From NCBI GenBank assembly GCA_963775895.1, contig CAVZKL010000017.1, positions 128,001 through 192,000 of the forward strand: DNA of 64,000 bases. The letters run 5' to 3'. This document shows positions 265 to 54,495 of the stretch, piece after piece; position 1 is the stretch's first letter, and each line of letters opens with the position of its first letter. This stretch comes from Candidatus Bathyarchaeota archaeon. Lineage in GTDB: Archaea > Thermoproteota > Bathyarchaeia > Bathyarchaeales > Bathycorpusculaceae. A program made the position numbers and the translations under genes. The notes below the pieces were generated by a model that saw only the letters and a program-made list of their open reading frames with translations, did no database searches and was not told the DNA's origin.

Positions 265-1710
265 ATGTCTATAAAATTATCTACTGGTGAAGAGTTCCCA
301 ATAGAAATGCACAAGACACGAATGGTTCAAAAAATCCAGTTAGTGCCCGTTGACGAACGTCTAAAAGCCATGGAGGAAGCAGGCTACAACACGTTTCTAC
401 TCAAGACCAAGGACATCTTTCTCGACATGCTCACGGACAGCGGCGTAAACGCAATGAGCGACAACCAGTTTGCTGCCATGATGCGAGTTGATGACGCTTA
501 CGCGGGAAGCATGACTTTCTACGAGTTCGCCAAAGCAGTGGACGATGTTCTGGGATACAAGCACGTGATGAACGTCCACCAAGGAAGAGCAGCCGAACAC
601 CTTCTCGCAAAAGTCTTCGCCAAACCCGGCGGCGTAGTCCCCACAAACTACCACTTCACCACGACTCGGGCACATATTGAGCTTCAAGGAATGCAAGTTC
701 TGGAAATCTATTATGATGAAGCATTGAAGACTGAGAGCACCAATCTATTCAAAGGATGCATGGACCCGCAGAAACTCAAGAACGTGATCAAAAAGTACGG
801 AAAAGACAAAATCGGCTTCGTTCGAATGGAGGCAACCACTAACCTGATCGGTGGGCAACCCTTCTCCATGAAGAACCTCAAGGAGATAAAGCAGATCTGT
901 ACGGAAAACGGACTGCTTCTGGTACTGGATGGAAGCCTGATTGCAGAAAATTGCTATTTGATAATGAAACGTGAAAAGGGATACGAAAACAAAACGGTTG
1001 CAGAAATAGCCAGGGAAATGTGCAGCATTCCTGACATCTTCTACATGAGCGGAAGAAAGAACACGTGCGTCAGAGGTGGTTGCATTGGAACGAATAATCT
1101 GAAACTCTTCGAACTGATACAACCTTGGCTTCCTGTGTACGAAGGCTTCTTTACGTACGGTGGTATGTCCATGCGCGAGATCGGCGCGATGGCCGTTGGA
1201 ATGAGGGAGATGGTGGATCCTGAAGTTGCTGGATGTTCAGTTGAGCAAATCAAATACTTTGTCAATAAACTTTCTAAAGCTGGAATTCCAGTTGTCACTC
1301 CGCCGGGTGGATTGGCGTGCCATCTCGACGCGATGAGATTCTTGCCTCATGTTCCACAACCGCAGTACCCCGCAGGAGCTCTGGCCGCGGCGCTTTACAT
1401 TTCCTCAGGAATCAGAAGTATGGAAAGAGGAACCATTTCGGTCGACAGAGACAAAGACACTGGAAAGGAAATCATGGCAGACATTGAACTGACTAGACTC
1501 GCATTACCTAGAAGAGTGTACTCGGTGTCGCATATTGAATACGCAATCGATAGAATAAAGTGGTTGTATGCACACCGAAAACTTGTGAAAGGTTTGAAAT
1601 TCGTGTCCGAACCACCAGTGCTCAGGTTCTTCCTCGGAAAACTCCGAGCCCTAGACAACTGGGGAAAAGACCTGTCCGAAACCTACAAGAAAGAAATGGG
1701 CCAGCTTTAA
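265..1710 (+). CDS. tpl: PLP beta-eliminating lyase, tyrosine phenol-lyase-like (tryptophanase family)
   Basis: Motifs DMLTDSG, DDAYAGS, HQGRAAE, MSGRK (PLP Lys) and TYGGM; TPL-type residues in HFTTTR, SMERG and LRFF. Confidence 0.8.
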   Translation: MSIKLSTGEEFPIEMHKTRMVQKIQLVPVDERLKAMEEAGYNTFLLKTKDIFLDMLTDSGVNAMSDNQFAAMMRVDDAYAGSMTFYEFAKAVDDVLGYKHVMNVHQGRAAEHLLAKVFAKPGGVVPTNYHFTTTRAHIELQGMQVLEIYYDEALKTESTNLFKGCMDPQKLKNVIKKYGKDKIGFVRMEATTNLIGGQPFSMKNLKEIKQICTENGLLLVLDGSLIAENCYLIMKREKGYENKTVAEIAREMCSIPDIFYMSGRKNTCVRGGCIGTNNLKLFELIQPWLPVYEGFFTYGGMSMREIGAMAVGMREMVDPEVAGCSVEQIKYFVNKLSKAGIPVVTPPGGLACHLDAMRFLPHVPQPQYPAGALAAALYISSGIRSMERGTISVDRDKDTGKEIMADIELTRLALPRRVYSVSHIEYAIDRIKWLYAHRKLVKGLKFVSEPPVLRFFLGKLRALDNWGKDLSETYKKEMGQL

Positions 1711-1750
1711 AGCCCTCTTCTACCTCTTTTTCGCCGCTCCTATGATTTTT

Positions 1751-2413
1751 TCAAAGCTTCAGCTTCTTCAACTGCTCAAGAATGTCTTCGACAGCCATTT
1801 CAGGAGTTGTTTCAAGGCTCTCGGCCTTGAAATCCACAAAGGGCACTTTTTTCTCCAAGTAGTATTTGAGAATTGGCTCGGTCTGACGTTCATAGACCCC
1901 TATTCGTTCTTTGATAACCTGAGGCGTATCATCGGAACGTTGGTAAAGCGGCCCACCGCATTTATCGCATATTCCTTCGACCTTAGGTTTAAGAAATCTA
2001 GTGTTATACACTTGTCCACAGTTTTTGCATATTCTTCGACTTGACAGTCTCTCAATGATAATCCAGTCTGGAACCGTCAGTTTGATGACGCCATCGATTT
2101 TTGTGAGCTTGTCCAACTCCTTGGCCTGCTCGATCGTTCTAGGAAAGCCGTCAAGTATGAAGCCTTTCTTGTTCGAAAGGCGAGACATGCGCTCCCGAAG
2201 TACTTGAATGACAACCTCGTCTGGAACCAGTTGTCCCTTTTCAACATATCCCTTCACTTTCTTTCCAAGTGAGCTATCCTCTTTCATAATCTCTCGAAGC
2301 ATGTCTCCAGTGGCAAACACGTCAACACCAAGTTCTGCTTGCAAGCGAGATGCGTAAGTTCCCTTGCCCGAGCCTGGCGGACCAAAGATGATGAGCTTCA
2401 TCGTTTTCACCAT
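1751..2413 (-). CDS. adk: Adenylate kinase (bacterial type, Zn-binding LID)
   Basis: GPPGSGKGT, TGDMLR, GFILDGFPRT, CKNC..CDKC LID, QRSDD. Confidence 0.95.
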   Translation of the reverse strand: MVKTMKLIIFGPPGSGKGTYASRLQAELGVDVFATGDMLREIMKEDSSLGKKVKGYVEKGQLVPDEVVIQVLRERMSRLSNKKGFILDGFPRTIEQAKELDKLTKIDGVIKLTVPDWIIIERLSSRRICKNCGQVYNTRFLKPKVEGICDKCGGPLYQRSDDTPQVIKERIGVYERQTEPILKYYLEKKVPFVDFKAESLETTPEMAVEDILEQLKKLKL

Positions 2414-2458
2414 GTTACAGCGTCTGTTTGCTTAGTACCACAGATTTTTCAGTGGAGC

Positions 2459-3241
2459 CTACTTACCCTTGAAAACTGGCTTTCTTTTTTCTGTGAAGGC
2501 TGAGACTCCTTCTTTGAGGTCTTCGCTGGACCCTACAACTCCAAAGCCTTCGCGTTCAAGAGCCAAAGCTGACTCTAGACCTGTGTCACTGCCTCTGTTG
2601 ATCAACGCCTTAGCAACTTTGATTGCCACCGGCGCTTTTGAAGCCAAGTCTTGGGCAAACTGGCGGACGGTTTCCCTGAATTTGTCCGCGGGCACGACCG
2701 CGTTTACGATTCCAATCTGTTCAGCCGTTTTTGCATCTATGATCCTTCCTGTGAAAACCATTTCTTTCGCCTTAGTCATGCCCACAAGTCGGGTCAGTCT
2801 TTGCGTGCCACCCCAGCCAGGGATGAGTCCGAAATTGATTTCTGTCTGCCCCATTTTGGCGTTTTCCGAGGCTATTCGAAGGTCGCATGCCATCGCAACT
2901 TCTAAACCGCCGCCCAAAGCGTAGCCGTTGATTGCGGCCACTATTGGTTTTTCAAGATTTTCTAGGCTCGTGCACAGTCTCTCACCCATGAGCGACAGTT
3001 CTCTCGCCTTGAGGGCCGTCATTCCAGTCATGGCCTTTATGTCGGCGCCTGCCGAGAAGGCTTTTTCGCCTGCTCCAGTCAACACAACGGCTCGGATTGC
3101 TTCGTCGGTTTTGATGTCGCCCAGCGCATCGAGGATTTCTTCTACGACTTCTTTGCTGAAAGCGTTAAGTGCTTCAGGACGGTTCAGTGTTATTGTGGCT
3201 ACGCCGCCGCTCTTTTCATAGATTATGTACTTGAATTCCAT
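2459..3241 (-). CDS. Enoyl-CoA hydratase (crotonase)
   Basis: LNRPEALNA, FSAGADI, GGGLE and PGWGGTQRL motifs. Confidence 0.93.
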   Translation of the reverse strand: MEFKYIIYEKSGGVATITLNRPEALNAFSKEVVEEILDALGDIKTDEAIRAVVLTGAGEKAFSAGADIKAMTGMTALKARELSLMGERLCTSLENLEKPIVAAINGYALGGGLEVAMACDLRIASENAKMGQTEINFGLIPGWGGTQRLTRLVGMTKAKEMVFTGRIIDAKTAEQIGIVNAVVPADKFRETVRQFAQDLASKAPVAIKVAKALINRGSDTGLESALALEREGFGVVGSSEDLKEGVSAFTEKRKPVFKGK

Positions 3242-3258
3242 AGAATCTCACTCCACGT

Positions 3259-4134
3259 CTATTTCTGCGTCCAGTCGTAGAAGCCTTTTCCGGATTTTCT
3301 TCCGAGCATCTGCGCTCTGACCATCTGTTTCAAGCCTACAGTGGCATGGAACTTCGGGTCGAGCTCTTTTGTCAAGACGTCAGCGATGGACAAAGTTGTG
3401 TCCAGACCAATGTAGTCCAGTAGTGTCAAGGGACCCATGGGCCAGTTTAACCCAAGTTTTATCGCCTTGTCAATGTCTTCTTTCTCAGCGACTCCCTCCC
3501 AGTACAGAGCGACGGCCTCATTCAAGGCGGGGATTAAGATACGGTTGACTATGAACCCCGGACTGTCCTTTTTCACGAGAACTGTTTCCTTCTCCATCTT
3601 GTGAGCAACGGCCAAGACTGTTTCGACCGTTTGGTCTGATGTCTTGGCTCCTCTGATGACCTCGACGAGTTTCATCAGTTGCGGCGGGTTGAAAAAGTGC
3701 ATTCCGCACACTTTTTCAGGACGTTTGGTGGCTGACGCCATTTCCGTGATACTCACAGAAGAAGTGTTGGAAGCAATAATCGCATGGGATGGAGCATAAC
3801 CGTCAACTTCTCTAAAGGTGGTTTTCTTCAGTTCGATGTTCTCAGGTATTGCCTCAATCACTAGATCGGCGTTTGAAACCGCTTCCTTCAGACTGAGCAT
3901 AGGATGAACCCTTCCCAGAATCGCCTTCATGTCCGCGTCTGAAAGTTGTCCTTTCTTGACGAATCGTTGAAGACTGTCGTTTATCATGCCCATGCCTCCA
4001 TCGATAAACCTTTGTTCAACGTCACGGATGTTGACCTCGTACCGTCCAACTTGGGCTGCTACTTGAGCTATTCCGTGTCCCATCAGACCTGCGCCCAAAA
4101 CTGCGACTGTTTTGATTTCCGTCAATTTCATCAC
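3259..4134 (-). CDS. hbd: 3-hydroxyacyl(butyryl)-CoA dehydrogenase
   Basis: GAGLMGHGIAQ, EAIPE, SNTSS, GMHFFNP, GFIVNR, PMGPL. Confidence 0.92.
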   Translation of the reverse strand: MMKLTEIKTVAVLGAGLMGHGIAQVAAQVGRYEVNIRDVEQRFIDGGMGMINDSLQRFVKKGQLSDADMKAILGRVHPMLSLKEAVSNADLVIEAIPENIELKKTTFREVDGYAPSHAIIASNTSSVSITEMASATKRPEKVCGMHFFNPPQLMKLVEVIRGAKTSDQTVETVLAVAHKMEKETVLVKKDSPGFIVNRILIPALNEAVALYWEGVAEKEDIDKAIKLGLNWPMGPLTLLDYIGLDTTLSIADVLTKELDPKFHATVGLKQMVRAQMLGRKSGKGFYDWTQK

Positions 4135-6117: not shown

Positions 6118-7455
6118 GTGTCTTGTATGAGAAAGACCATTTTCAAGAAACTCGAAGCCCAAGGCCTGATTACAAATTATAATCACATGAGAAAAAACTT
6201 GCCTCCGAAACTTCCAGAAAAAGTTTTCATCTGGGATGAGACAATCTATGAAGGTGCTCAGACTCCAGCTGTTTTTCTGACCTACGTTGAAAAGGTCAAA
6301 CTGGCGAAGATGATGGACGAAATGGGCGTTTCGGTGATAGAGGTCGGTTTCCCAGGTCTTTCGGAGCAGGAGAAAACAACCGTCAAGAAAATTGCAAACG
6401 AAGGTTTTCAACAATCAAGCATTGCGGCTTCTTCACGCATAATGAAGAGCGACATCGATGCATGCCTTGACTGCGGCATAAGAGACATATCAATCGTAAC
6501 CGCATTCAACGGGCTTCAGCTTCAGAACAGGCTTAAAATGAAGAAAACCGAAGTGCTGCAGAAGACTGTTGAAAGCGTCGAATACGCAAAGAAGCATGGG
6601 GCAAGAGTCATTCTCGTTCTCGAAGATGGATCGCGCACGCCTCTGGAGAACATGCTGGAGATTTTCGAAGCAACGGTGAGAGTTGGCGCTGACCGACTGG
6701 TTATCGCAGACACCGTTGGGTTTCTGAGACCGCTGTCGATGCGCTACCTCATCTCACACGTCAGAGACGAACTGAACGGACGCGTGAAGAAACAAGTTCC
6801 TCTAGCCGTCCATTGCCACAACGACTTCGGGCTCGCCACTGCAAACACGCTAGCGGCTGTCGAGGAGGGCGTAACTTACCTGCATACATGCGTGGCTGGT
6901 TTTGGCCAGAGAGCAGGCTGTGCGCCTTTGGAGGAAGTCACCACGGCTCTGGAGCTACTTTACGACGTGGACACCGGAGTGGACCTCGGAAAACTGTTCA
7001 GACTCTCGCAGATGGTGGAAAAGGCCTTCGCGATGCCCATTCAATTCCACAAACCTATCATCGGTGAGAACGCTTTCTCCTATGAGATGGACGAAAACAC
7101 TAAGACAATGCTGTCAAACCCGATCGTGGATGAGCCTTTCCCACCCGAAATCATCGGCAGAGAAACAACGTTTCACATGGGCAGACGAACGGGAAAACGT
7201 GTCGTCGAGGACCGATTGAAGATCGCTGAAATAAACGCCACGCCGATTCAGATAGACGACATCGTGAAAAGAATCAGGGGAGCACAAGAGTCTTTGGACA
7301 AGGGTGAGGCCCAAATGACCTTCTACCAGGTCAAGAAACTCATGAAGGAAATGAGGAAAAGCCTTACTGAGGAAGAATTTTGGAGAATTGTCGAACAAGT
7401 TACAAAGCAGAAGCCTAAGCTGCCACAGCCGCCAGGTTCCGCGGCCCCCGCTTAG
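6118..7455 (+). CDS. LeuA/homocitrate synthase family DRE-TIM protein with degenerate active-site motif
   Basis: IEVGFP, IADTVG, HCHNDFGLATAN, KPIIGENAF; DETIYEGAQ where DxTLRDGxQ is expected. Confidence 0.8.
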   Translation: MSCMRKTIFKKLEAQGLITNYNHMRKNLPPKLPEKVFIWDETIYEGAQTPAVFLTYVEKVKLAKMMDEMGVSVIEVGFPGLSEQEKTTVKKIANEGFQQSSIAASSRIMKSDIDACLDCGIRDISIVTAFNGLQLQNRLKMKKTEVLQKTVESVEYAKKHGARVILVLEDGSRTPLENMLEIFEATVRVGADRLVIADTVGFLRPLSMRYLISHVRDELNGRVKKQVPLAVHCHNDFGLATANTLAAVEEGVTYLHTCVAGFGQRAGCAPLEEVTTALELLYDVDTGVDLGKLFRLSQMVEKAFAMPIQFHKPIIGENAFSYEMDENTKTMLSNPIVDEPFPPEIIGRETTFHMGRRTGKRVVEDRLKIAEINATPIQIDDIVKRIRGAQESLDKGEAQMTFYQVKKLMKEMRKSLTEEEFWRIVEQVTKQKPKLPQPPGSAAPA

Positions 7456-7610
7456 TTCTTCTCACGTAGGCATGTTTTTCGAAGAGTTCTTGCGTCCAAT
7501 GAATCCTCAGTCTTTCCCTCTCCTACTGTTGCCCTCTGACTCTGTCGATCTTTCCAGGTTGACGCTACGAAGAGAACCACAGATAACGTGGATTTAATGA
7601 AGCGCGTCGA

Positions 7611-8399
7611 CTACTTCGTTCTCGGTATGTATATTCCGGTGGGGTCAATTGCCCTCAGCAGTTCCAACTCTTCGAGCGTCGGAAGTTCTGTGGTTGGAAC
7701 GTTTTGAGGGGTTTTCAGGTCGAAGCTTGAGTTCTCAACGACTTGTTCAACCGTTACACCCGGGTGCACGGTGGCCAGTCTTATGCGTTTTGTGTGCGGG
7801 TCAAAATCCATCTGACAGAGGTTGGTGACTACTAATGAGGGTCCGCCGCCCACTAAACCTGCCTTTTCTCTGGCTCCAGGTCCGTCGAGGAAACCGGGAC
7901 TTGTCAGGTAATCGAGCTTGTTGACCATTTTCCTCTTTTCGTGGGGCATTATGACGACTATGCGTTTGGCTGAAGAGACCATGTCGTTTCCTCCGCCGCT
8001 TCCTGGCAGTCTGACCGTTGGTTTCTCGAAGCTTCCGATGTACGTGGTGTTGATGTTTCCGTACGCGTCGATCTGGGCTGCACCGACGAACCCCAGGTCC
8101 ACGTGTCCTCCTTGAACCATGAGCCCAAGCGTTTCGAGCAGTCCGATTGCTCCTGACGCTCGCCAGCCAAGTCTTGAATCGGCGATGGACAAGGCCAAAT
8201 CTTTCGCGTTCGAATCTATGAAACCCGATTCAAAAACGATCTTCGCTCGAGGCGCATGAGTTCGTTTGGCCAGGAGTGAAGCAACCATGGGGAGCCCCGT
8301 TCCGACGAACACCACTTCCCCGTTCTTTATCTGTCGCGAGCCGCAAACGGCCATCAGTTCCAGAGTGCTGAACTCGCTTGGTTTTGCAAGTCTTGACAT
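7611..8399 (-). CDS. Family I CoA-transferase beta subunit (glutaconate/3-oxoadipate CoA-transferase B-like)
   Basis: VFVGTGLP, catalytic FESG, GAAQIDAYGNIN, RLPGSGGGND. Confidence 0.88.
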   Translation of the reverse strand: MSRLAKPSEFSTLELMAVCGSRQIKNGEVVFVGTGLPMVASLLAKRTHAPRAKIVFESGFIDSNAKDLALSIADSRLGWRASGAIGLLETLGLMVQGGHVDLGFVGAAQIDAYGNINTTYIGSFEKPTVRLPGSGGGNDMVSSAKRIVVIMPHEKRKMVNKLDYLTSPGFLDGPGAREKAGLVGGGPSLVVTNLCQMDFDPHTKRIRLATVHPGVTVEQVVENSSFDLKTPQNVPTTELPTLEELELLRAIDPTGIYIPRTK

Positions 8400-8414
8400 G
8401 ATTCTTTCTCCCTC

Positions 8415-9353
8415 CTAGTACGGAAAAGGTCTTCTCGCCTTCAGCTTCATGAGCCGCTGTAATCCTATTTTCTGCAAGAATTCGTCGTGGTTCTCGACGC
8501 TCGTTATGAAGTTCTCGCAGTACTTTTGCCATCCTTCTTCGGTTTTGCACTGATCGTAGTACATGCGGACGTGTTCCATGTCGTAGTCGTAATAATTGTA
8601 GACCATCATGGGATAGGAGCCCCATGGGCGTTCCACGACGTGCGTAACGTAAATGTTGGGGATGACGGTCTGGTCTGGTTGGGACCTTATGAATTCCGTG
8701 TCCACGATTTCTTCGGTCAAAACTATGACCTTTTTTCCCGCCCTGGCGCCTTCAACGTCTTCTCCCTTGATTCCGTCTATTTGCACGTTCCCTTCACGGT
8801 CTACTCGTGAAGCGTGGACTATGCTGAAATCGGGGCGGATTGAAGGCACGAGCACAACCTTCTCTCCTGTGAAGGGGCAATGGATCACTTCTGCCTTCTT
8901 CTCCCTGAACTTCTTTTTCGCAAGCATGTCGGTGCCCAGCATGCTCTTCAACGGCATGAAAGGCACGCCAAGGGCACCGCCTAACAGGCGCATGACCATC
9001 GCCAGGTTTGAGTAATCTTCGATTTCAATGGTTCCATCCTTGATTCTTCTCTGAATGTTGGGGACGAGACCTATTCCTTCGATCGCGTAGAAAGCCAGTT
9101 CGTAGCGTGAGGCAACTCTTGCGCCTGAAAGTATGTCAAGGTCCAATTCCGAGCCACAGGTGTAGATTGTTAAGCCTCTTTTCTTCTGTCGGACCAACTC
9201 GTGTGCAAAAGCCATGGGTGGACGTTGGAAGCCGAAACCGCCCCAGAAAAGGTGAGCGCCATCGGGAACGAGTTTCACGGCTTCTTGGAGCGTTATCAAT
9301 TTGTCTTCTACAGGGGATGCCAATTGAATGTCTCCCGCCGTTTGGCTCTGCAT
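8415..9353 (-). CDS. Family I CoA-transferase alpha subunit (GctA-like)
   Basis: EAVKLVPDG, GGF..RPPMA, IEDYSN, GVPFMP, LGTD, CPFTGE; adjacent to the beta subunit. Confidence 0.88.
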   Translation of the reverse strand: MQSQTAGDIQLASPVEDKLITLQEAVKLVPDGAHLFWGGFGFQRPPMAFAHELVRQKKRGLTIYTCGSELDLDILSGARVASRYELAFYAIEGIGLVPNIQRRIKDGTIEIEDYSNLAMVMRLLGGALGVPFMPLKSMLGTDMLAKKKFREKKAEVIHCPFTGEKVVLVPSIRPDFSIVHASRVDREGNVQIDGIKGEDVEGARAGKKVIVLTEEIVDTEFIRSQPDQTVIPNIYVTHVVERPWGSYPMMVYNYYDYDMEHVRMYYDQCKTEEGWQKYCENFITSVENHDEFLQKIGLQRLMKLKARRPFPY

Positions 9354-9452
9354 AGATTAATCCTCAGCATTTAGACTTTTCGACGAACAAAAACAGCGGA
9401 AACCAGCGTTCTTTCAAATGGAAAATGGAGACAGTTTGGTTTTTTTGCGAGT

Positions 9453-10501
9453 CTAGCCATTCCGTGTTTTCTTCACTTCGAGTGCCAGTTCGCTTTGAGT
9501 CCTTGAAACTTCGTTTCGGGTCAATTTCCTCGCGTAGTTGTAGATCGGGACCTCCAGGTCTTTCATTGTAGTAGGGCCTGTTGCAACCCGGGCATCCGGA
9601 CGTGACGAAAGGCTTGCCGGTTCTGATCACGCGTCGAAGCGTCTGCACGATCAACTCCGAAGCCTATGAGGCGGTCTCCATCAAACTCCATTCCTTCGTA
9701 CCTCGCTGTTCCGTGCAGAATCAGGTAACGTGCAACTTGAATCCGCCTGTACAGCGTGACTTCAGGGGGCGTTTTCTTGGCCAATGCTGTCCCTGGAACG
9801 GGCGTGAACGCGAAGAGTCCTGGAAGAACACCCATGTCGACACAGTCCTGAATCGTCTTGATCATCTGCTTCTCGGTTTCTCCGATGCCGACGATCAGGT
9901 GCGTGCTGACCATTTTTTTTCCGAAGACTTCTACAGCGTCCCTGAGGAGTTGCAGTTGTCTTTCCCAGCTGTATGGACCGCCTGCGTCGGGGCCTTTGAT
10001 CTTGTTGAAGACCTCTTTCGTTGCGGCGTCCAACGGTATGCCTATTCGCTGCGTTCCGGCCTTTGCCAACGTGAACGATGTCTTCTCTTCTCATGGGCTG
10101 GCATGACACCGAGATTGGCATTCGGGTCAGCGAATGGGTTGCTCGAACCAGAGCGACGAGATCCTCGAACACTCCGGGATAATTCAATGCTTGAATGCAG
10201 ACTCTCTCGATTTCTCCTCTCTTTCGAGCTCCTTCTATTTCCTCGAGAACTTTTTTCGTTGGATAGGTTGGCCAGGAGACTCTTGAGAGCATGTCCGTTT
10301 TGCTGCTGCTCTCTCTGGCTGCGGGCAGAAACCACAGTTTGCTGTGCACTTCTCCTTTCTGTAGGTCATCAAGTAAGCCGTTGTGGGTGGAGCGTCCAGT
10401 TTGGTCTTCAAGAGGCCCAGCACTGCGGCGGAACCAACGGAAACGCGAATGAATTCGGGCAGGAAATCGTCTTTGATCATGAGTTCTCGCGCGTTCTCCA
10501 T
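9453..10501 (-). CDS. lipS2: Radical SAM protein, archaeal lipoyl synthase subunit LipS2-like; several apparent frameshifts
   Basis: CTANCGFC cluster motif, LSRVSWP, HLIVGIGE, LFAFTP and TSGCPGCNRP (LipS2 signature) spread over consecutive frames; joined stop at 9453. Confidence 0.75.
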
Positions 10502-47049: not shown

Positions 47050-48241
47050 TCAATTTGAATAGACTCCGAAACGCCACGATTCTTCTTTCTCGTAAAGGCT
47101 CCTGAGCACATCAGTGGCTATTTGTCTATCGACTGTGAGAAGCAGTTTTGCGATGTGCTTGCACAGCCTTTTCGTTGAATTGATCTTCTTCCAATCAGCG
47201 CAGTCGTGAAGCATGAGATTTGTCTCCCATGTCTATTGTTATATGGTATTCTTTCAACGTCGCTTCGATCAGGTCCTGGGTTTGTTTCGTCACTCGTAAC
47301 TCGATGTCTTCGATTTGTTCCGCTCGTTTCAACCGTTCTGGCGAAACAAAGTGGGCAATCAGGCTAGTGAAATCCATGTTTCTCGGAGGAACAAAAGCTT
47401 CGAGCGTGGAGCATGTCTGTTCCTCTTGCTTTTTGCGATAGTCTTCCAATCTCCTCTTTGCGTCCACTTGCTTCGGTTCGATCACTCCGAGAATCTCCAT
47501 TATTTGCAGGCAGTTTTCAACGGCGTAACCGTGATAATGGTTGTTGAAGTAGCCATAGACCTTGTCAACTTTGTTTGCAACTTCGTTGACTTTTGGGGCC
47601 CACGGCTGTAATTCCTCTACACTGTACAGGTAGTTGTACCATGGTCCATTGCCGTGTCCGTGCCATCTAAAATAGGCAATGTTGGACGTGACGTGAATTT
47701 CTGGGGGAAGCAGTGGTTCGTCGACTATCGCGTAGGCCACCCTGTATTTTTCAAGAAGCGCCCACGTCTCGTTCTTCAGCCACGAAGGGTGACGAAACTC
47801 AACCGCAAATCTGATGTGGGTTGGGAGGAGCTTGAAGAAGTCTTCCATTTGTTTGGGTCTGTAGTCGAATCTTGGAGGAAGCTGGATCAGTATACAGCCT
47901 AGTTTCCCGCTTAGAAAGAGAGGCTCCATCAGTTCCGTGAACTTCTCCAAATCCTTTTCTATTCCCTCTGCTAGATTCAGCTTTTTTTCATGAGTGATCA
48001 GCCCAGGCAGTTTTGCCGTGTACACGAAACTCTCAGGTGAGTACCGGGCCCAACCCATGACTGTACCCTTGTTTGGATAGCGGTAGAAAGTGGAGTCTAT
48101 CTCAACGCTTTTGAAAACGTTTGAATACGCTCTGAGCATACTTTTGTCCGACTTTGAATAGAATGGACCTATCCACTCTTTGTAGCTCCAGCCAGAAGTT
48201 CCCAGAAGTACCTTGTCGGAAGCTTTAATCACTTTAATCAC
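47050..48241 (-). CDS. DUF72 protein with C-terminal SWIM-like zinc finger; apparent frameshift near 47222
   Basis: LGTSGWSY.EW, VEIDSTFY, QLPP, EFRHPSW, YFRWHG, YFNNH; the shifted frame gives LMLHDCADW..RLCKHIAKLL...YSN*. Confidence 0.8.
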
Positions 48242-49174
48242 TCTATTATTGATTTCATTTTTTCTGCGACTTCTGATAGAGCTATCGTAGGTTCCTTCGG
48301 GGATTTTCCTCAAACATTCCGCCACATGAATTCTCTCAGTCTTGCTCAGATCGAATAGTTTCCATCCTTGACTGTGTATTAGCTGCTGTTTCGTCGCAGG
48401 GAAGCATGCGTCTTCTCTTAGCACCTCTTCTAATGAGGCGATTCCAGTTGAATTTGTTATCGATGGGAACTTGCCAGTTTGTTTGTAGGACTTCAACCTG
48501 ACAGCGTCTTTGTACATTCTTACAAAGTGAAAGCTCATGACTATCTTCTTGGATCTGCTACTGGTCGCCTTTCTATCTATTTCTACTAATTCCCCGTCAG
48601 TTGGTTGGTAAACGTTGTGTTCACCCTTGCCGAACAGCCTTGTGTACAGTACGTCTGAATCGTAAGCTGGGGTCTCGCCTTTCGAAAGGTCAACCGAGTG
48701 AATGATGTTAAAGTCCTGCATCACCTTGAGAAGTCCGCTAGGCAGATCGGCGCTTGGAGTTCTTCTGATTTCGAGCGCCAGTCTCAGACTTCCCAGATTC
48801 AGCGAACGCAGGGTTTGGCGAACGTTTTCAATCGTTGTTTCATTTAGTTCAAATGCTGGAGGTGCTTGAAGATGAAGGATTTCAGCGTTCAGCACATTGC
48901 AAATCCGTTTCATCTTCTCAAAGGATTCGAAAACCTCCTTTTCAGGCTTGAGTCTGTGCTTATGCGTAATCGATCTGTGTGCTCTGACCGAAAATTGAAA
49001 GTCGGTGAGTACCATTTTTCGCCAGCTCTCTGCTTCAGCAAGAGGAGGGATTTGATAGAAGGTCGAGTTGACCTCCACAAAATTGAAAACTTTCGAATAC
49101 GCTACTAACGACTTTAATTTCGGAACTTGAAAGTACGCCCACCCGCCAGCTCCAATGAGGTATTCTGTCAACAA
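48238..49174 (-). CDS. DUF72 protein with C-terminal DUF2795-like domain; joined to the next gene in the ORF track by a probable one-base indel near 48280
   Basis: IGAGGWAY, VEVNSTFY, LEIR, YTRLFGKG; C-terminal FPATKQQLI..IPEGTY; the shifted frame ends LSEVAEKMKSIIE* with a GTGA overlap. Confidence 0.75.
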
Positions 49175-49695: not shown

Positions 49696-50433
49696 ATGAG
49701 GGCTTTCCGCTTGATTAGACTATTGCTGCTCGTATTGCCTCTGACTTTAGTTTTGCTCAACTCCGCGAGTGTACTTGCCGCGGAGGAGAAAATGAAGAGT
49801 TTTTTCAATTCTGAGATGACTGGAGTCACGATTGGGGTCAAGGCAACGCAACTCGTCGAACCGGGGCAAAGCGTGACTGTAGTTATGACTGTGAATACAA
49901 CTTTCCACGTACATATTGAGCGAATCGGTCTGGAGATATTCGGCTTTGTAAACGGCACGGACCAGCTTTCAATAGGAAACATGTCCGATGGCGACTTTGA
50001 CCTGAACGACACTCTGAAAGAGTACGTTATCACAACCACTGTTCCAAACAATGTGTGGGGTTCCACCTACGGAGAGATAAGATTAACCTACTCAGTCAAC
50101 ATGGGTGGGGCTATACTCCAATTTCCGAATATCATCAACGGTTTTCCATTAACCCCCGTGGAAAACACATTAGTCAAGAGCCTTGAAGAACAGATCAAGA
50201 GCTTGAATGAGAGCTATAGCCAATTGTCCCAAATGTATGCGAACTTGACCAACGCGTTCGTCAACCTGAACCAAAGCTACTGGAATCTACAAGGAAATTA
50301 TACTTCTGCACAAAACAGCCTAGGGGAACTGGACAACACCCGGCGTCTATCGACGATCTTGGCGATAACTACAGTTTTCTTCTTAGCTACAACGGTCTAT
50401 ATCGTAGTGAGAAGACCAAGAGATTACTGGTAA
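49696..50433 (+). CDS. Secreted, C-terminally anchored protein with coiled-coil stalk
   Basis: Signal peptide, beta-rich domain, N-glycosylation sequons in heptads, TM followed by RRP. Confidence 0.75.
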   Translation: MRAFRLIRLLLLVLPLTLVLLNSASVLAAEEKMKSFFNSEMTGVTIGVKATQLVEPGQSVTVVMTVNTTFHVHIERIGLEIFGFVNGTDQLSIGNMSDGDFDLNDTLKEYVITTTVPNNVWGSTYGEIRLTYSVNMGGAILQFPNIINGFPLTPVENTLVKSLEEQIKSLNESYSQLSQMYANLTNAFVNLNQSYWNLQGNYTSAQNSLGELDNTRRLSTILAITTVFFLATTVYIVVRRPRDYW

Positions 50434-50498: not shown

Positions 50499-51792
50499 CT
50501 ACTTCTCGTGAAGTTTCTGAGCTGCGACGAAGGCTAGTCCATTTTTCGTGAGAGCTTCCGCGGTTCTGTTCACAGCATCGTGTTTGTCAAGGTAGTTCAA
50601 TAGCAGCTGCGGCATCAGTCCTTCCATCGAGAATATCTTTTTTGGGCCTGAAGTAGTCGAGGATATCCGATGCATGCTTTCTCTTGACTTCGGTTGCTGG
50701 AAGCCCACCTTCATGTTTTGCGCCGATGTTTCTGACATGGTCTGCAAGTTCGAGAAGTTCGCTAGTTCGGTCGTAAGGCTCTCGGACTATGCTCTTGTAC
50801 GCTTCCGTTATGTGATGCTCGATGCGAACTACGTTTTCAAAGTCAAAGAAGTCTCTCACGTAAGCAGCAAGTTCTATCGTCTGATTATTAACGGAGTTGG
50901 AAAGGTTGAAGCCGATAAGGGGCGTCGACCCATCTTCCCTGCTGAAGAGTTTCGCCGTCAATAACGTCCAGAGTATAGAGTACGGGTTGTCAATTCCCAG
51001 AAACACCGATATCTTGAATTCAATGTCGATGCCTAGCTTACGTAGCCAATATCCGAGCAAAACGGTTCCAGCGTTCGTGTTTAGTACTTGCGTGACCCCG
51101 TACTCAGTGTAGTAGTGCAGGAACTCGTCGACCCATTTCAACGAATACTCGTTCGGTGCTCCTACACCTCCGAAGTAGCCTGTTATCGTTTCGGGTCCAC
51201 CCAGGTGAACATTTATTGGTTTGCCATCCGGCCCCGATAGGGTTCCCTTCGTGTCCAAAGTCTGCACGTAAGAAGCTCCGATGATCTGCATTGACGCGGC
51301 GAAAGCAAGAATGTCGCCGTCTTCCACCTGTTCCTTCATTGAGCGTACGCGAATGTACCGACCGGGCATCAGTTCCTGTTTTTTGATGGCTTGCTTCGCT
51401 TCCTCGATGAGCCATGGGAAAAAGTTGAGGGCGCTGATTTCCAGGGTGACGGGAAAAGATTCGTCAAACTTCATCGATTCCGCTTTTTTTCCGAGGATCT
51501 TCTTTCTGTAATCGTGTATACTAATAAAAGCTTCTTTGTCGCGTTGATTGCTGAGCCATTCAAGATCCTTTGTGAATGATGATTTCTTTTTCTTGAGCCT
51601 GTTCATCAGGTTGTCAATCTTGCGAGCGTCTTCGGCTTTCTTGTTAATCTCTTTGACGCCGCCATACTTGTCGATGATTTCGAGCAGTCCGTTAACGAGG
51701 GGATTGTCCTTTTTCAGCAAGAACTTGTTAATTTCATCGAGATTTTGGTGGTCTATGCGTAGTTTGTCCCTAAGGTTAATCAAGATATTCAT
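50499..51792 (-). CDS. Conserved-looking hypothetical protein (about 430 aa); apparent frameshift near 50625
   Basis: Long ORF with enzyme-like Gly/Pro motifs (LMPGRYIRVR, DTKG, HLGGPETITGYFGG, AKHEGG); continues as EGLMPQLLLNYLDKHDAVNRTA in the next frame. Confidence 0.8.
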
Positions 51793-51922
51793 CCTCTCTG
51801 TTGCGATAACCTGTTCACAGCTTATTGTTTATAGTATTTTCGGAAAGAACGAATTCGATTGTTTTTTCGACAAAAATGAACTTAAATAATATAAGACCGA
51901 TGAACGTCTAAGAGGTCGTGGA

Positions 51923-53407
51923 TTGCTTATGTTCAAGCCTGAAGGAATTTTCCCCGCTTTGGTGACACCGTTTACCGATGATGGAAGTGGCGTTGATGAA
52001 CAAAGGCTGCGAGCGCTAGTTGACCATTGCATCGAGATGGGGGTTCACGGAGTCGTTCCATGTGGAACGACCGGCGAGTCTGTTAATTTGACGGTCGAAG
52101 AGAAGAAACGGGTCATCAGGATCGTGGTTGATGAGGTCAACGGAAAGGTTCCGGTCATAGCTGGGACAGGTTCCAGCGGGACGGACCAGACTGTTGAAAT
52201 GACGAAGTATGCCAAGGACGCTGGAGTGACGGCTGCTTTGATCGTCACGCCTTATTACTTGAAGCCTGCGGACCGCGGAATTTACGAACACTACAGCACC
52301 ATAGCGAGTGAAGTTGACTTGCCGATAATATTGTACAACATTCCGCAGTGCACGGGGTTGGATTTGCCTTGGCAGATGGTGGAAGACCTTGCCCAGATAC
52401 CGAACATCGTTGGTGTCAAAGACAGCAGTGGACAGTTGAAGTTCATACTGGCCGTTCTGGAAAAGGTCAGAGACAAGATAAATGTGCTTTGTGGACACGA
52501 TGAAGTTGTGATGGCTGGTCTAGCTGCGGGTTGTTCTGGCGCCATACTTGCCAGTGCTAATGTGATCCCTGACGTTTGGGTTCAAATGTACAACCATGTC
52601 AAAATGGGTGAGCTTCAGCAAGCTCGCGAGCTTCAGTACAAGATCCAAAAAATAGCCAGGATAATCGCCGGAAGCGGAGCGGTTGGAACAAAAGAGGCTT
52701 TGAACATGATGAAAATCAAGGTGGGGCCCGTCAGAAAACCTCTCAGTGTGGGTGGAGAGTTGACGTATGAATCAAGAGAGGAACTGCGTCTTGACCTGGA
52801 AAAGATCGGAAAGATAAAGCCTAGGGTAATATCCTTCGAGATGCCAGAGAAGCCGATCGAAGAACGGTTCGCGGCAGTCGAGATAACACCCGAGATCATC
52901 AAGGACTGGAATTTGCGAGTCGGGGAAGCTTTGGCGGGACAGGGTGCAGAAGTGGCACACATCGATCTTCTGATCGGCAGAAAAGATGGTCCTGTTGCTG
53001 CGGCTCTTGCGACTGCGAAAGCGACGCCGGAATCGGGACACGAGCCTTTGCTTGCAATTCTGGAGCCTAATCTTTCCGTCAAGCCTGTGACTCTGATCGT
53101 GCCAACTGTTACTATAACGAGTATGCGGCAGGCAAGTATGGTTTATGGTCCGGCGCAGACTGCGGTGGCAAAAGCCGTTGTTGACAGCGTTGCAGATGGG
53201 ACAATTCCCAAAGCCGCAGTAGACGAATTGGTGATAATCGCGAACGTGTTCGTTCATCCGACTGCGGTCGATAGACAGAGAGTCTACATCAACAATTACA
53301 AGGCGATGCGACATGCTATTCGCAAAACTGTGGAAGGCAGACCGAGTATTGACGAGCTCATAGAGAACAAGGATCGTTCGAAGCATCCGTTTAAGTATGG
53401 TCCGTAG
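51923..53407 (+). CDS. DapA/NAL-family class I aldolase fused to formaldehyde-activating enzyme (Fae) domain
   Basis: N-terminal PALVTPF, GTTGES, TPYY, LYNIP, GVKDSSG; C-terminal (from about 52910) VGEAL..EVAHIDLLIG, PNL.VKP, GPAQ.AVAKAV, VFVHP, NNY, HPF. Confidence 0.9.
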   Translation: MLMFKPEGIFPALVTPFTDDGSGVDEQRLRALVDHCIEMGVHGVVPCGTTGESVNLTVEEKKRVIRIVVDEVNGKVPVIAGTGSSGTDQTVEMTKYAKDAGVTAALIVTPYYLKPADRGIYEHYSTIASEVDLPIILYNIPQCTGLDLPWQMVEDLAQIPNIVGVKDSSGQLKFILAVLEKVRDKINVLCGHDEVVMAGLAAGCSGAILASANVIPDVWVQMYNHVKMGELQQARELQYKIQKIARIIAGSGAVGTKEALNMMKIKVGPVRKPLSVGGELTYESREELRLDLEKIGKIKPRVISFEMPEKPIEERFAAVEITPEIIKDWNLRVGEALAGQGAEVAHIDLLIGRKDGPVAAALATAKATPESGHEPLLAILEPNLSVKPVTLIVPTVTITSMRQASMVYGPAQTAVAKAVVDSVADGTIPKAAVDELVIIANVFVHPTAVDRQRVYINNYKAMRHAIRKTVEGRPSIDELIENKDRSKHPFKYGP

Positions 53408-54216
53408 TGAGCGCAGTGATAGACGACCTGATTGTCGAGGGGCAGTACGTACTTCTCGAATTGAGTCAGCGCAAGACCTACTTGGTCAAGGTTGAAAAGG
53501 GCAAGAGTTTTCACACGCACAAAGGGTTTGTGACGTTGGACAACTTGATTGGAAAAGCGTATGGCTCAACCATATCGAGTAGTCTGGGTTTCGAGTTTGT
53601 TGCTCTGAAACCCATGCTTCGTGATTACATTTTGAAGTGTGCGAGGCAGACGCAGATCATGTATCCCAAGGACATTGCTCTGATAGTTATGTTCAGTGGA
53701 ATTGGACCTGGGAGTCGTGTGGTTGAAGCAGGAACTGGTACGGCAGCGATGACTACGGCCTTGGCGCATTATGTTAAGCCGAGTGGCAAGGTTTACAGTT
53801 ACGAGATCAGGGAAGAATTTCGGGTAACGGCTGAGAAGAATCTTGTCAGGGCTGGGTTGATTGATTTTGTGGAATTGAAGAACAAGGACGTAACGGCAGG
53901 AATAGATGAGGAAAAAGTGGACGCTGTGATTCTTGACCTCGCTGTTCCATGGCTGGTGGTTCCACGTGCATACGATGCTCTGAAAGCCAGCGGGACGATA
54001 GTCTCGTTCAGTCCAACGATAGATCAGGTTGTGAGAACCGTTGACGCGCTCAGGGAGAATAGCTTCACTGACATCGAGACCGTTGAATGTTTGATGCGGG
54101 GTATGCAGGTGGAAATCGGAAGAACTCGTCCCCAGACACTGATGACCGGTCACTCAGGTTACATCACGAACGCGCGCAAGAAAGTCAGGACCGGTGCATC
54201 AGACGAGCCAGCGTAA
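53407..54216 (+). CDS. trmI: tRNA (adenine-N1)-methyltransferase
   Basis: FHTHKG, QIMYPKD, VVEAGTG, YEIREE, LDLAVPW, SFSP, GHSGY. Confidence 0.93.
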   Translation: MSAVIDDLIVEGQYVLLELSQRKTYLVKVEKGKSFHTHKGFVTLDNLIGKAYGSTISSSLGFEFVALKPMLRDYILKCARQTQIMYPKDIALIVMFSGIGPGSRVVEAGTGTAAMTTALAHYVKPSGKVYSYEIREEFRVTAEKNLVRAGLIDFVELKNKDVTAGIDEEKVDAVILDLAVPWLVVPRAYDALKASGTIVSFSPTIDQVVRTVDALRENSFTDIETVECLMRGMQVEIGRTRPQTLMTGHSGYITNARKKVRTGASDEPA

Positions 54217-54495
54217 CTGGGTTCTAAATGTGAGTATTTGCATAGAGGATTCTTCTAGAAGCTTGTTTCAGAAACGATAAATCATCTGGTTCTGCGTATC
54301 ATGATTCTGTAGAGAGAAATTCAGGAGTTGAAAGGAGAGGGGAGACGTGGATTGCGCATCCATTTAGGGGTGCGCGGTCCAATAAAGCCGAGGACTTTCT
54401 AGTTGCGTGCGCGTCACTCGAGTTTGGATTATTGAACTGAGAAATCGTTTGTCTCATGCGGGTTTTGAAATTCAAAATGGTCGTCAAGGTTTAGG

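Follow-up and report, generated by a model that had tools for sequence, protein, structure and literature searches.

We analysed a 64,000-nucleotide stretch of the genome of a Candidatus Bathyarchaeota archaeon (contig CAVZKL010000017.1, positions 128,001 to 192,000; hereafter, the window) and focused on a gene that appears to join members of two known enzyme families, a class I aldolase of the dihydrodipicolinate synthase (DHDPS, or DapA) family and the formaldehyde-activating enzyme (Fae). The open reading frame (ORF) listing gives a single ORF on the forward strand, 51923..53407, which comprises 494 codons and opens at TTG 51923. The ATG at 51929 is probably the true start, since the homologues are almost all 492 amino acids long and begin with MFKPEG. 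Motif residues are numbered here on the 494-aa ORF, and linker residues on the 492-aa protein. The gene and its parts are as follows.

51929..53407, + strand: fusion gene, DHDPS-family aldolase plus Fae, 492 aa from the ATG at 51929, stop codon included
51938..52801, + strand: class I aldolase (DHDPS-family) domain, complete
52064-52081, + strand: GTTGES motif, residues 48-53
Residues 110-112, + strand: PYY motif in the aldolase domain
Residues 138-143, + strand: YNIPQC motif, with Cys (codon 52349-52351) at the equivalent of DHDPS Arg138
Residues 164-168, + strand: GVKDS motif, with the Schiff-base Lys (codon 52418-52420)
52490-52504, + strand: CGHDE motif, which contains GHD, residues 190-194
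52802..52918, + strand: inter-domain linker of about 39 residues, conserved among orthologues
52919..53392, + strand: Fae domain, complete
Residues 345-348, + strand: AHID motif in the Fae domain (His codon 52958-52960)

A first-pass annotation of the window had described one uninterrupted frame with a full DHDPS-family barrel followed by a complete Fae domain. This was borne out by profile searches, and every motif that it quoted is present. Pfam DHDPS (PF00701) matched residues 6-293 with an E value of 1.8e-82, and Pfam Fae (PF08714) matched residues 333-490 with an E value of 2.1e-61 (207 bits, profile positions 1-158 of 159). The nearest solved structure to the N-terminal part was DHDPS of M. 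jannaschii (2yxg, E 2.2e-57), and the Schiff-base Lys of GVKDS aligned with the Lys of DHDPS structures. In the Fae part, the segment "evahidl" is conserved in M. extorquens Fae (1y5y), with AHID standing opposite "ahid"; the His and Asp of this motif are catalytic in Fae. The Fae domain looks competent, because it scored 216.5 bits against the NCBIfam equivalog one_C_fae (TIGR03126; cut-off, 118.05), aligned end to end with residues 5-166 of 1y5y (E 1.2e-35), and keeps AHID. Among 25 orthologues, linker residues F314 and I324 are invariant, and K299, F303, K308, E311, T320, P321, F327, and L329 are at least 90% conserved.

The first-pass annotation had named a fusion unique to this assembly as a reason to abandon its proposal. 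Instead, the architecture proved to be widespread. In a collection of 5.8 billion proteins, the best 120 clusters all carried both Pfam domains, at 84-96% identity, and were labelled by NCBI and JGI as 4-hydroxy-tetrahydrodipicolinate synthase of Bathyarchaeia. Relatives were encoded in 173 stretches of species-representative genomes. The best 80 of these were near full length at 75-90% identity; 76 covered residues 1-492 or 1-490, and four ended at 457-481, where the contig ends. All of the best 80 were labelled Bathyarchaeia or Bathyarchaeota, except for two bins labelled bacterial. When the class Bathyarchaeia was sampled evenly, matches at E<=1e-80 came from 92 of 301 genomes (43 of 107 genera). 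Both domains were in one frame in 83 of the 92, and the remaining nine were partial matches (contig ends or one domain only). An all-against-all search of representatives yielded 13 more 50%-identity clusters in which the two domains are fused (35-55% identity). One of them, P0245 (45% identity), heads a large family that carries the NCBI name Thorarchaeota/Promethearchaeota, so the fusion spans at least two archaeal phyla. It is not an assembly artefact.

In a tree of the aldolase domain, all 26 fused sequences fell into one clade (support, 0.975), with four unfused or fragmentary tips among them, which points to a single origin of the fusion. As judged from these comparisons, the fusion is old, single, and constrained. 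No description of it was found in full-text searches of the main texts of papers; supplementary gene tables (e.g., those of PMC10321748) might list the gene as dapA or fae. That large study of Bathyarchaeia genomics notes the wide occurrence of fae and discusses a link between Bathyarchaeia, tetrahydromethanopterin (H4MPT), and formaldehyde (PMC10321748). The fusion would thus be a new and ancient domain architecture, assembled from two known families and systematically misnamed DapA.

Among 41 relatives of the window's genome, the fusion was found in 20. It lay in one frame in 18 and was split into adjacent pieces in two genomes of the same genus, where it occupies two overlapping frames (G001:C1:332959-334435, residues 1-368/363-492, and G005:C20:181310-182786, residues 1-229/224-492). 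These split copies are likely frameshift errors or recent pseudogenes. In the second genome, the gene adjoining the split fusion, designated F2 and described below, also has stop codons.

The name DapA deserves scrutiny. As the first-pass annotation had foreseen, automatic annotation assigns it: the protein scored 260.3 bits against the NCBIfam dapA equivalog (TIGR00674), above the cut-off of 206.15. A true dihydrodipicolinate synthase merely fused to Fae would also fit the 60 PDB relatives listed for the aldolase part, all of which are DHDPS with 2yxg as the best, the retention of the Lys and of the GTTGE, PYY, and YNIP motifs, and the finding that the fusion is the sole DHDPS-family gene found in its own genome (1.77 Mb, 28 contigs, 88.8% complete). 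The residue that confers substrate recognition tells against it. Arg138 of DHDPS binds the carboxylate of aspartate semialdehyde, and the Cys of the fusion stands at what we take to be the position of Arg138 in E. coli DHDPS (motif YNVP(S/G)RT); in the alignment with 2yxg, "ynipqCt" lies opposite "ynvpsRt". The loss of Arg, claimed at first for the window's own protein, extends across the fusion clade: 24 of the 25 orthologues have Cys at this position and one has Val, and 27 of the clade's 30 tips carry Cys, Val, Leu, Ala, or Thr. Arg occurs in none of the 25 orthologues and in none of the 30 tips. In P0256, Val occupies the position and the next two residues depart from TG.

The other motifs differ as well. 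Canonical DHDPS, taken from a representative library and from the relatives, reads GTTGES, PYYNKP, YNVP(G/S)RTG, KEA(S/T)G, and SGDD, whereas the fusion clade reads GTTGEF, P(Y/F)YLKP, YNIPQ(C/V/L/A/T)TG, KDSSG, and GHDE. Compared with DapA, the fusion has, besides its Cys, PYYLKP for PYYNKP, KDSSG for KEA(S/T)G, and GHD for GDD. Relatives with the diaminopimelate pathway use a different DapA, with RTG and GDDD, which is clustered with dapB and asd (for example, the dapA-dapB-asd cluster at G012:C3:26171-30202) and is only 29-30% identical to the fusion's aldolase domain by BLASTP (32-33% in the genome search). Several fusion genomes contain one further DHDPS-family paralogue, whose motif YNVPKFTG likewise lacks the Arg.

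Pathway genes gave a concordant picture. The check for a separate canonical dapA suggested by the first-pass annotation found none in the window's genome. No dapB was found there above the cut-off (best match, 37.8 bits against 122, a Rossmann-only match), and neither lysA nor asd gave a match. In the co-occurrence counts given here and below, absence means not found in the genomes searched. Among the 41 relatives, dapB above the cut-off was found in 0 of 20 genomes with the fusion versus 14 of 21 without it, and asd in 1 of 20 versus 15 of 21. Five asd-positive fusion genomes of the class sample (94-100% complete) likewise had no dapB above the cut-off, which brings the count to 0 of 25 fusion genomes checked; in three of the five, the fusion was the sole DHDPS-family gene. 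Because the Arg is lost across the clade, dapB, lysA, and asd were not found in the window's genome, and dapB was found in none of the 25, this two-domain enzyme is very probably not DapA, and we regard a genuine DHDPS with an appended Fae as extremely improbable.

As the best single reading of the fusion, to which we give a little less than an even chance, we propose, largely by analogy and as in the first-pass annotation, a pyruvate-formaldehyde aldolase coupled to H4MPT. The aldolase domain would still form the pyruvate enamine, because the Schiff-base Lys and the pyruvate-side motifs are kept. The aldehyde partner would be small and uncharged. It would not be aspartate semialdehyde, because the carboxylate-binding Arg is replaced by a small residue, and formaldehyde would be the simplest choice by analogy with Fae-Hps. 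The Fae domain would interconvert methylene-H4MPT with formaldehyde and H4MPT, and free formaldehyde would pass from one active site to the other. This would give the overall equation methylene-H4MPT + pyruvate + H2O <-> 4-hydroxy-2-oxobutanoate (HOB) + H4MPT. HOB is the keto acid of homoserine, and the enzyme would serve either to assimilate one-carbon (C1) units into four-carbon (C4) compounds or to hand a C1 unit over to H4MPT. The proposed function is plausible and testable, and it is unproven.

The nearest known system in logic is Fae-Hps (archaeal 5,6,7,8-tetrahydromethanopterin hydro-lyase/3-hexulose-6-phosphate synthase), whereas DapA is the nearest in sequence. Fae-Hps likewise fuses Fae to a formaldehyde-handling C-C lyase in H4MPT-using archaea. 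However, the partner domain in the fusion is a DHDPS-family Schiff-base aldolase and not Hps, the domain order is reversed, with Fae C-terminal, and the co-substrate would be pyruvate instead of ribulose 5-phosphate. No OMPdecase/HUMPS domain was found in the fusion, and NF009833 matched through the Fae part only (178.6 bits against a cut-off of 274). With DapA, the fusion shares fold, family, the Lys, and the pyruvate-side motifs; apart from the motif differences listed above, it lacks a dapB, lysA, or asd partner and has the extra Fae domain. NAL, KDG aldolases, 4-hydroxy-2-oxoglutarate aldolase, and HpaI-type enzymes resemble the fusion in being pyruvate-dependent class I enzymes that lack the DapA Arg and use other aldehydes, and the KDSSG-type Lys motif is common among non-DapA members of the DHDPS family. 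The fusion scored under the cut-offs for HpaI-NOT-DapA (219.6 against 396.7), NanA (172 against 382), and archaeal KDG aldolase (136.5 against 390). We know of no non-DapA member of the DHDPS family that is fused to Fae.

In the proposed chemistry, the nearest counterparts are PanB-type hydroxymethyl transfer and the promiscuous HOB aldolase of the engineered homoserine cycle. PanB brings about a net hydroxymethyl transfer from methylene-pterin to C3 of a 2-oxo acid. The fusion would be a class I, H4MPT-linked counterpart of this transfer, with a fold and mechanism unrelated to those of PanB. The HOB aldolase of the synthetic homoserine cycle, E. coli RhmA, carries out the same reaction as proposed here, pyruvate and formaldehyde giving HOB, which is then transaminated to homoserine (PMC8879981). 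RhmA is a metal-dependent class II enzyme that acts promiscuously, in an engineered pathway, on free formaldehyde, whereas the fusion would be natural, class I, and H4MPT-linked. According to a review, the route from pyruvate and formaldehyde through HOB to homoserine works in E. coli by means of a promiscuous aldolase, and HOB is called a non-native metabolite (PMC8879981).

The fusion is flanked in the window by the following genes.

49696..50433, + strand: 245-aa protein, hydrophobic at its N-terminus, without a family match
50499..51792, - strand: F2, conserved protein without a known family, about 427 aa in relatives, divergent from the fusion
53407..54216, + strand: TrmI/GCD14-type S-adenosylmethionine-dependent methyltransferase, with a GTG start that overlaps the stop codon of the fusion

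Within the taxonomic order to which the window belongs, the arrangement of divergent F2, fusion, and TrmI is nearly fixed. F2 lies upstream in 70 of 77 species loci, and of the 75 loci with sufficient flanking sequence, 74 have the TrmI gene downstream; no functional link between TrmI and the fusion is evident. The 245-aa protein belongs to this conserved local arrangement as its third member, at 10 of 13 loci of the taxonomic order. The F2 reading frame is interrupted close to its 3' end in this assembly: the ORF at 50587-51792 ends in an unrelated 12-residue tail, and the conserved last ~40 residues (…GLMPQLLLNYLDKHDAV…) are found in another frame, in the ORF at 50499-50747. The break is a frameshift or a sequencing or assembly error. 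Farther away, a 659-aa ORF at 47195-49174 on the reverse strand contains two DUF72 matches (PF01904, E 1.3e-95, 2 stretches) and may have arisen by duplication within the gene or by the joining of two DUF72 units. A search for RNA data sets that cover positions 50500-54300 of the window gave none.

Other lineages have other genes beside the fusion. In one genome of family f28 (G069), thrB (NF002288, 298 bits against a cut-off of 194), thrC (TIGR00260, 376 bits), and then asnS lie downstream of the fusion on its strand, and asd was not found in this genome, which is 96% complete. Family f26 has four loci in which an operon transcribed divergently from the fusion encodes a 328-aa unknown protein, a HcyBio+CBS protein (PF01837, E 9e-145), and a PRK04334-family protein. 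Family f24 has a methylthioadenosine-phosphorylase-like gene, below its family cut-off, downstream of the fusion. In G305, of the same family, the fusion is followed by F2 with a 4-nt overlap, a serine hydrolase, and then the serine hydroxymethyltransferase gene glyA (L142, G305:C115, 4983-10643). These neighbourhoods in different lineages point to a place for the fusion at the node of homoserine, aspartate semialdehyde, and C1 metabolism.

F2 adds a further connection. It was detected in 47 of the 301 class-sample genomes, 39 of which have the fusion; seven of the other eight have asd, and in the last one it lies at a contig end. In genus g113, which is without the fusion, F2 is divergent from asd in G183 (L139, G183:C160), and the order in G272 is asd, aldo-keto reductase, F2 (L138, G272:C124, 1436-5075). 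Since F2 adjoins asd in some genomes and the fusion in others, the two may supply related C4 intermediates. No Pfam or NCBIfam family matched F2, a profile search against the PDB returned nothing (best E, 0.99), and the best score in the ESM Atlas, 0.86, was under the acceptance bar. A structural model of F2 had a mean predicted local distance difference test score (pLDDT) of 58.5 and a predicted template-modelling score of 0.64, with an alternating beta/alpha pattern. Foldseek searches of the PDB with this model gave 0 matches at E<=0.001. The best matches were TIM barrels, namely MetF (5ume_B; E 0.027, TMq 0.30), KDO8PS, and DAHP synthase, and F2 probably has a TIM-barrel-like fold. It is a candidate for a new enzyme in the metabolism of C4 amino acids or C1 units.

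These observations allow a wider scheme to be formulated, which we consider unlikely as it stands. Bathyarchaeia and Thorarchaeota would possess a natural route from methylene-H4MPT through enzyme-bound formaldehyde and HOB to homoserine-type products, beside or instead of the aspartate-semialdehyde route. F2 would act as the next enzyme, because it neighbours either the fusion or asd. Such a route would be a natural counterpart of the corresponding step in the engineered homoserine cycle and a hitherto unrecognized exit from the archaeal methyl branch. Co-occurrence does not support a simple new homoserine route. In the class sample, with thrC counted as present at E<=1e-80, the fusion was found in 13 of 132 genomes with both asd and thrC, 15 of 50 with asd only, 15 of 43 with thrC only, and 49 of 76 with neither. 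It is most frequent in genomes that lack the aspartate-family pathway altogether. As a general rule, replacement of asd by the fusion was rejected, as asd accompanies the fusion in 28 of its 92 genomes and members of family f26 carry the two together; the negative association remains, with the fusion in 15% of asd-positive versus 54% of asd-negative genomes. The notion that the fusion generally feeds ThrB and ThrC was also unsupported, with thrC in only 28 of the 92 and the fusion most common where asd and thrC are both missing.

A third idea, that an orphan Hom marks the pathway, was dropped: a divergent Hom occurs with the fusion only in genus g1, and the other fusion-bearing families of the order are without Hom. 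The divergent Hom-family gene, at G000:C20:6083-6613 and in the genomes of genus g1, scored 146-160 bits, compared with 187-210 in asd-bearing relatives, and genus g1 keeps it although asd was not found there. Two further damaged genes were noted. One is a thrC-like remnant with three in-frame stops at a contig end (G000:C25:18-958, reverse strand), and the other is a second Mch copy interrupted by TAG (G000:C27:62972-63906, forward strand). Both are possibly pseudogenes or assembly errors.

Several results weigh against the pyruvate-formaldehyde aldolase reading and keep our support for it tentative. One is the TIGR00674 score. A single small residue in the place of Arg is also not enough to specify formaldehyde as the substrate. 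The Arg-position motif as a whole is altered in three tips of the clade, P0248, P0253, and the unfused P0286. The Schiff-base Lys is lost in P0248 and P0253, which look like pseudo-enzymes or proteins of other function. AHID is kept in subclade A, the window's own, and lost in subclade B (P0243, P0246, P0247, P0248, P0250, P0254, and P0256), where the Fae His and the C-terminal tail are missing. Not all members of the family can therefore couple the two reactions, and the fold appears to be retained for non-catalytic or other purposes as well. An AlphaFold2 model of the fusion, built with 25 orthologues, reached a mean pLDDT of only 62.2, too poor for analysis of pockets, interfaces, or tunnels. 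Of the H4MPT genes that the first-pass annotation had suggested checking, Mch (409 bits) and Fae-Hps (a 473-aa ORF with Fae and OMPdecase/HUMPS-family domains) were found in the window's genome, but F420-dependent Mtd was not. H4MPT-bound C1 chemistry is therefore probably present in this organism.

The part of the proposal that concerns HOB has fared unevenly. The neighbourhoods do touch the homoserine/aspartate-semialdehyde node, but asd and canonical thrC are both missing from 49 of the 92 fusion genomes, and within the window's order, HcyBio and canonical thrC (about 300 bits or more) were each found in 0 of 20 relatives with the fusion, versus 14 of 21 and 12 of 21, respectively, without it. 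Most carriers thus have no known consumer of homoserine. Retention of asd in the 28 genomes mentioned above tells against it too. The thrB-thrC adjacency is confined to one narrow lineage, and among four close metagenome contigs, thrB is kept in one and lost or reduced to a 47-residue remnant in three (L149-L151, about 6485-6849, where thrC is kept). In addition, the genomes are sampled and mutually related and not independent, so that the co-occurrence counts overstate the evidence.

The chief alternative, which we hold possible but doubtful, is that one chain carries two independent activities. The aldolase would make or cleave another 4-hydroxy-2-oxo acid, with a partner aldehyde such as glyoxylate, acetaldehyde, or glycolaldehyde, and Fae would act separately or serve as an oligomerization or pterin-binding module, with no formaldehyde passed between them. 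Subclade B fits this. Having lost the Fae His, its members show that the Fae fold can persist without the catalytic residue; they keep the aldolase motifs, and three genomes carry a member in tandem with an intact fusion (L132 in G054, 6998-9936; L133 in G089, 1197-4121; and G095). The Arg is also missing in many stand-alone DHDPS-family aldolases. The window's own subclade, however, keeps AHID and a Fae domain above the equivalog cut-off, the linker is conserved, and in two archaeal phyla the fusion persists as one clade. Moreover, to our knowledge, the only fusion partner known for Fae is Hps, a formaldehyde-releasing enzyme of aldolase type. A hydroxymethyltransferase for another 2-oxo acid, for example one converting 2-oxoisovalerate to ketopantoate as an H4MPT-dependent stand-in for PanB, would match the PanB type of reaction, in which a C1 carrier is combined with activation of a 2-oxo acid at C3. 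We consider it very improbable, as DHDPS-family enzymes are pyruvate-specific as a rule. A role as a PanB substitute was rejected because, among the 41 relatives, PanB co-occurs with the fusion (10 of 20 genomes versus 3 of 21 without it), a positive association.

The naming has consequences. The DapA name sits on hundreds of Bathyarchaeia and Thorarchaeota records at NCBI and JGI, and metabolic reconstructions that count the fusion as DapA wrongly attribute a lysine-synthesis step to archaea that abound in sediments and soils. If the pyruvate-formaldehyde aldolase reading is true, the fusion would be a natural enzyme that joins an H4MPT-bound C1 unit to pyruvate, a chemistry that, according to the review, has so far come only from promiscuous enzymes in engineered pathways of methanol or formaldehyde assimilation (PMC8879981). 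For uncultured archaea that demethylate lignin-type compounds or run an H4MPT-based Wood-Ljungdahl pathway, it would provide a direct link from C1 units to C4 and amino-acid carbon.

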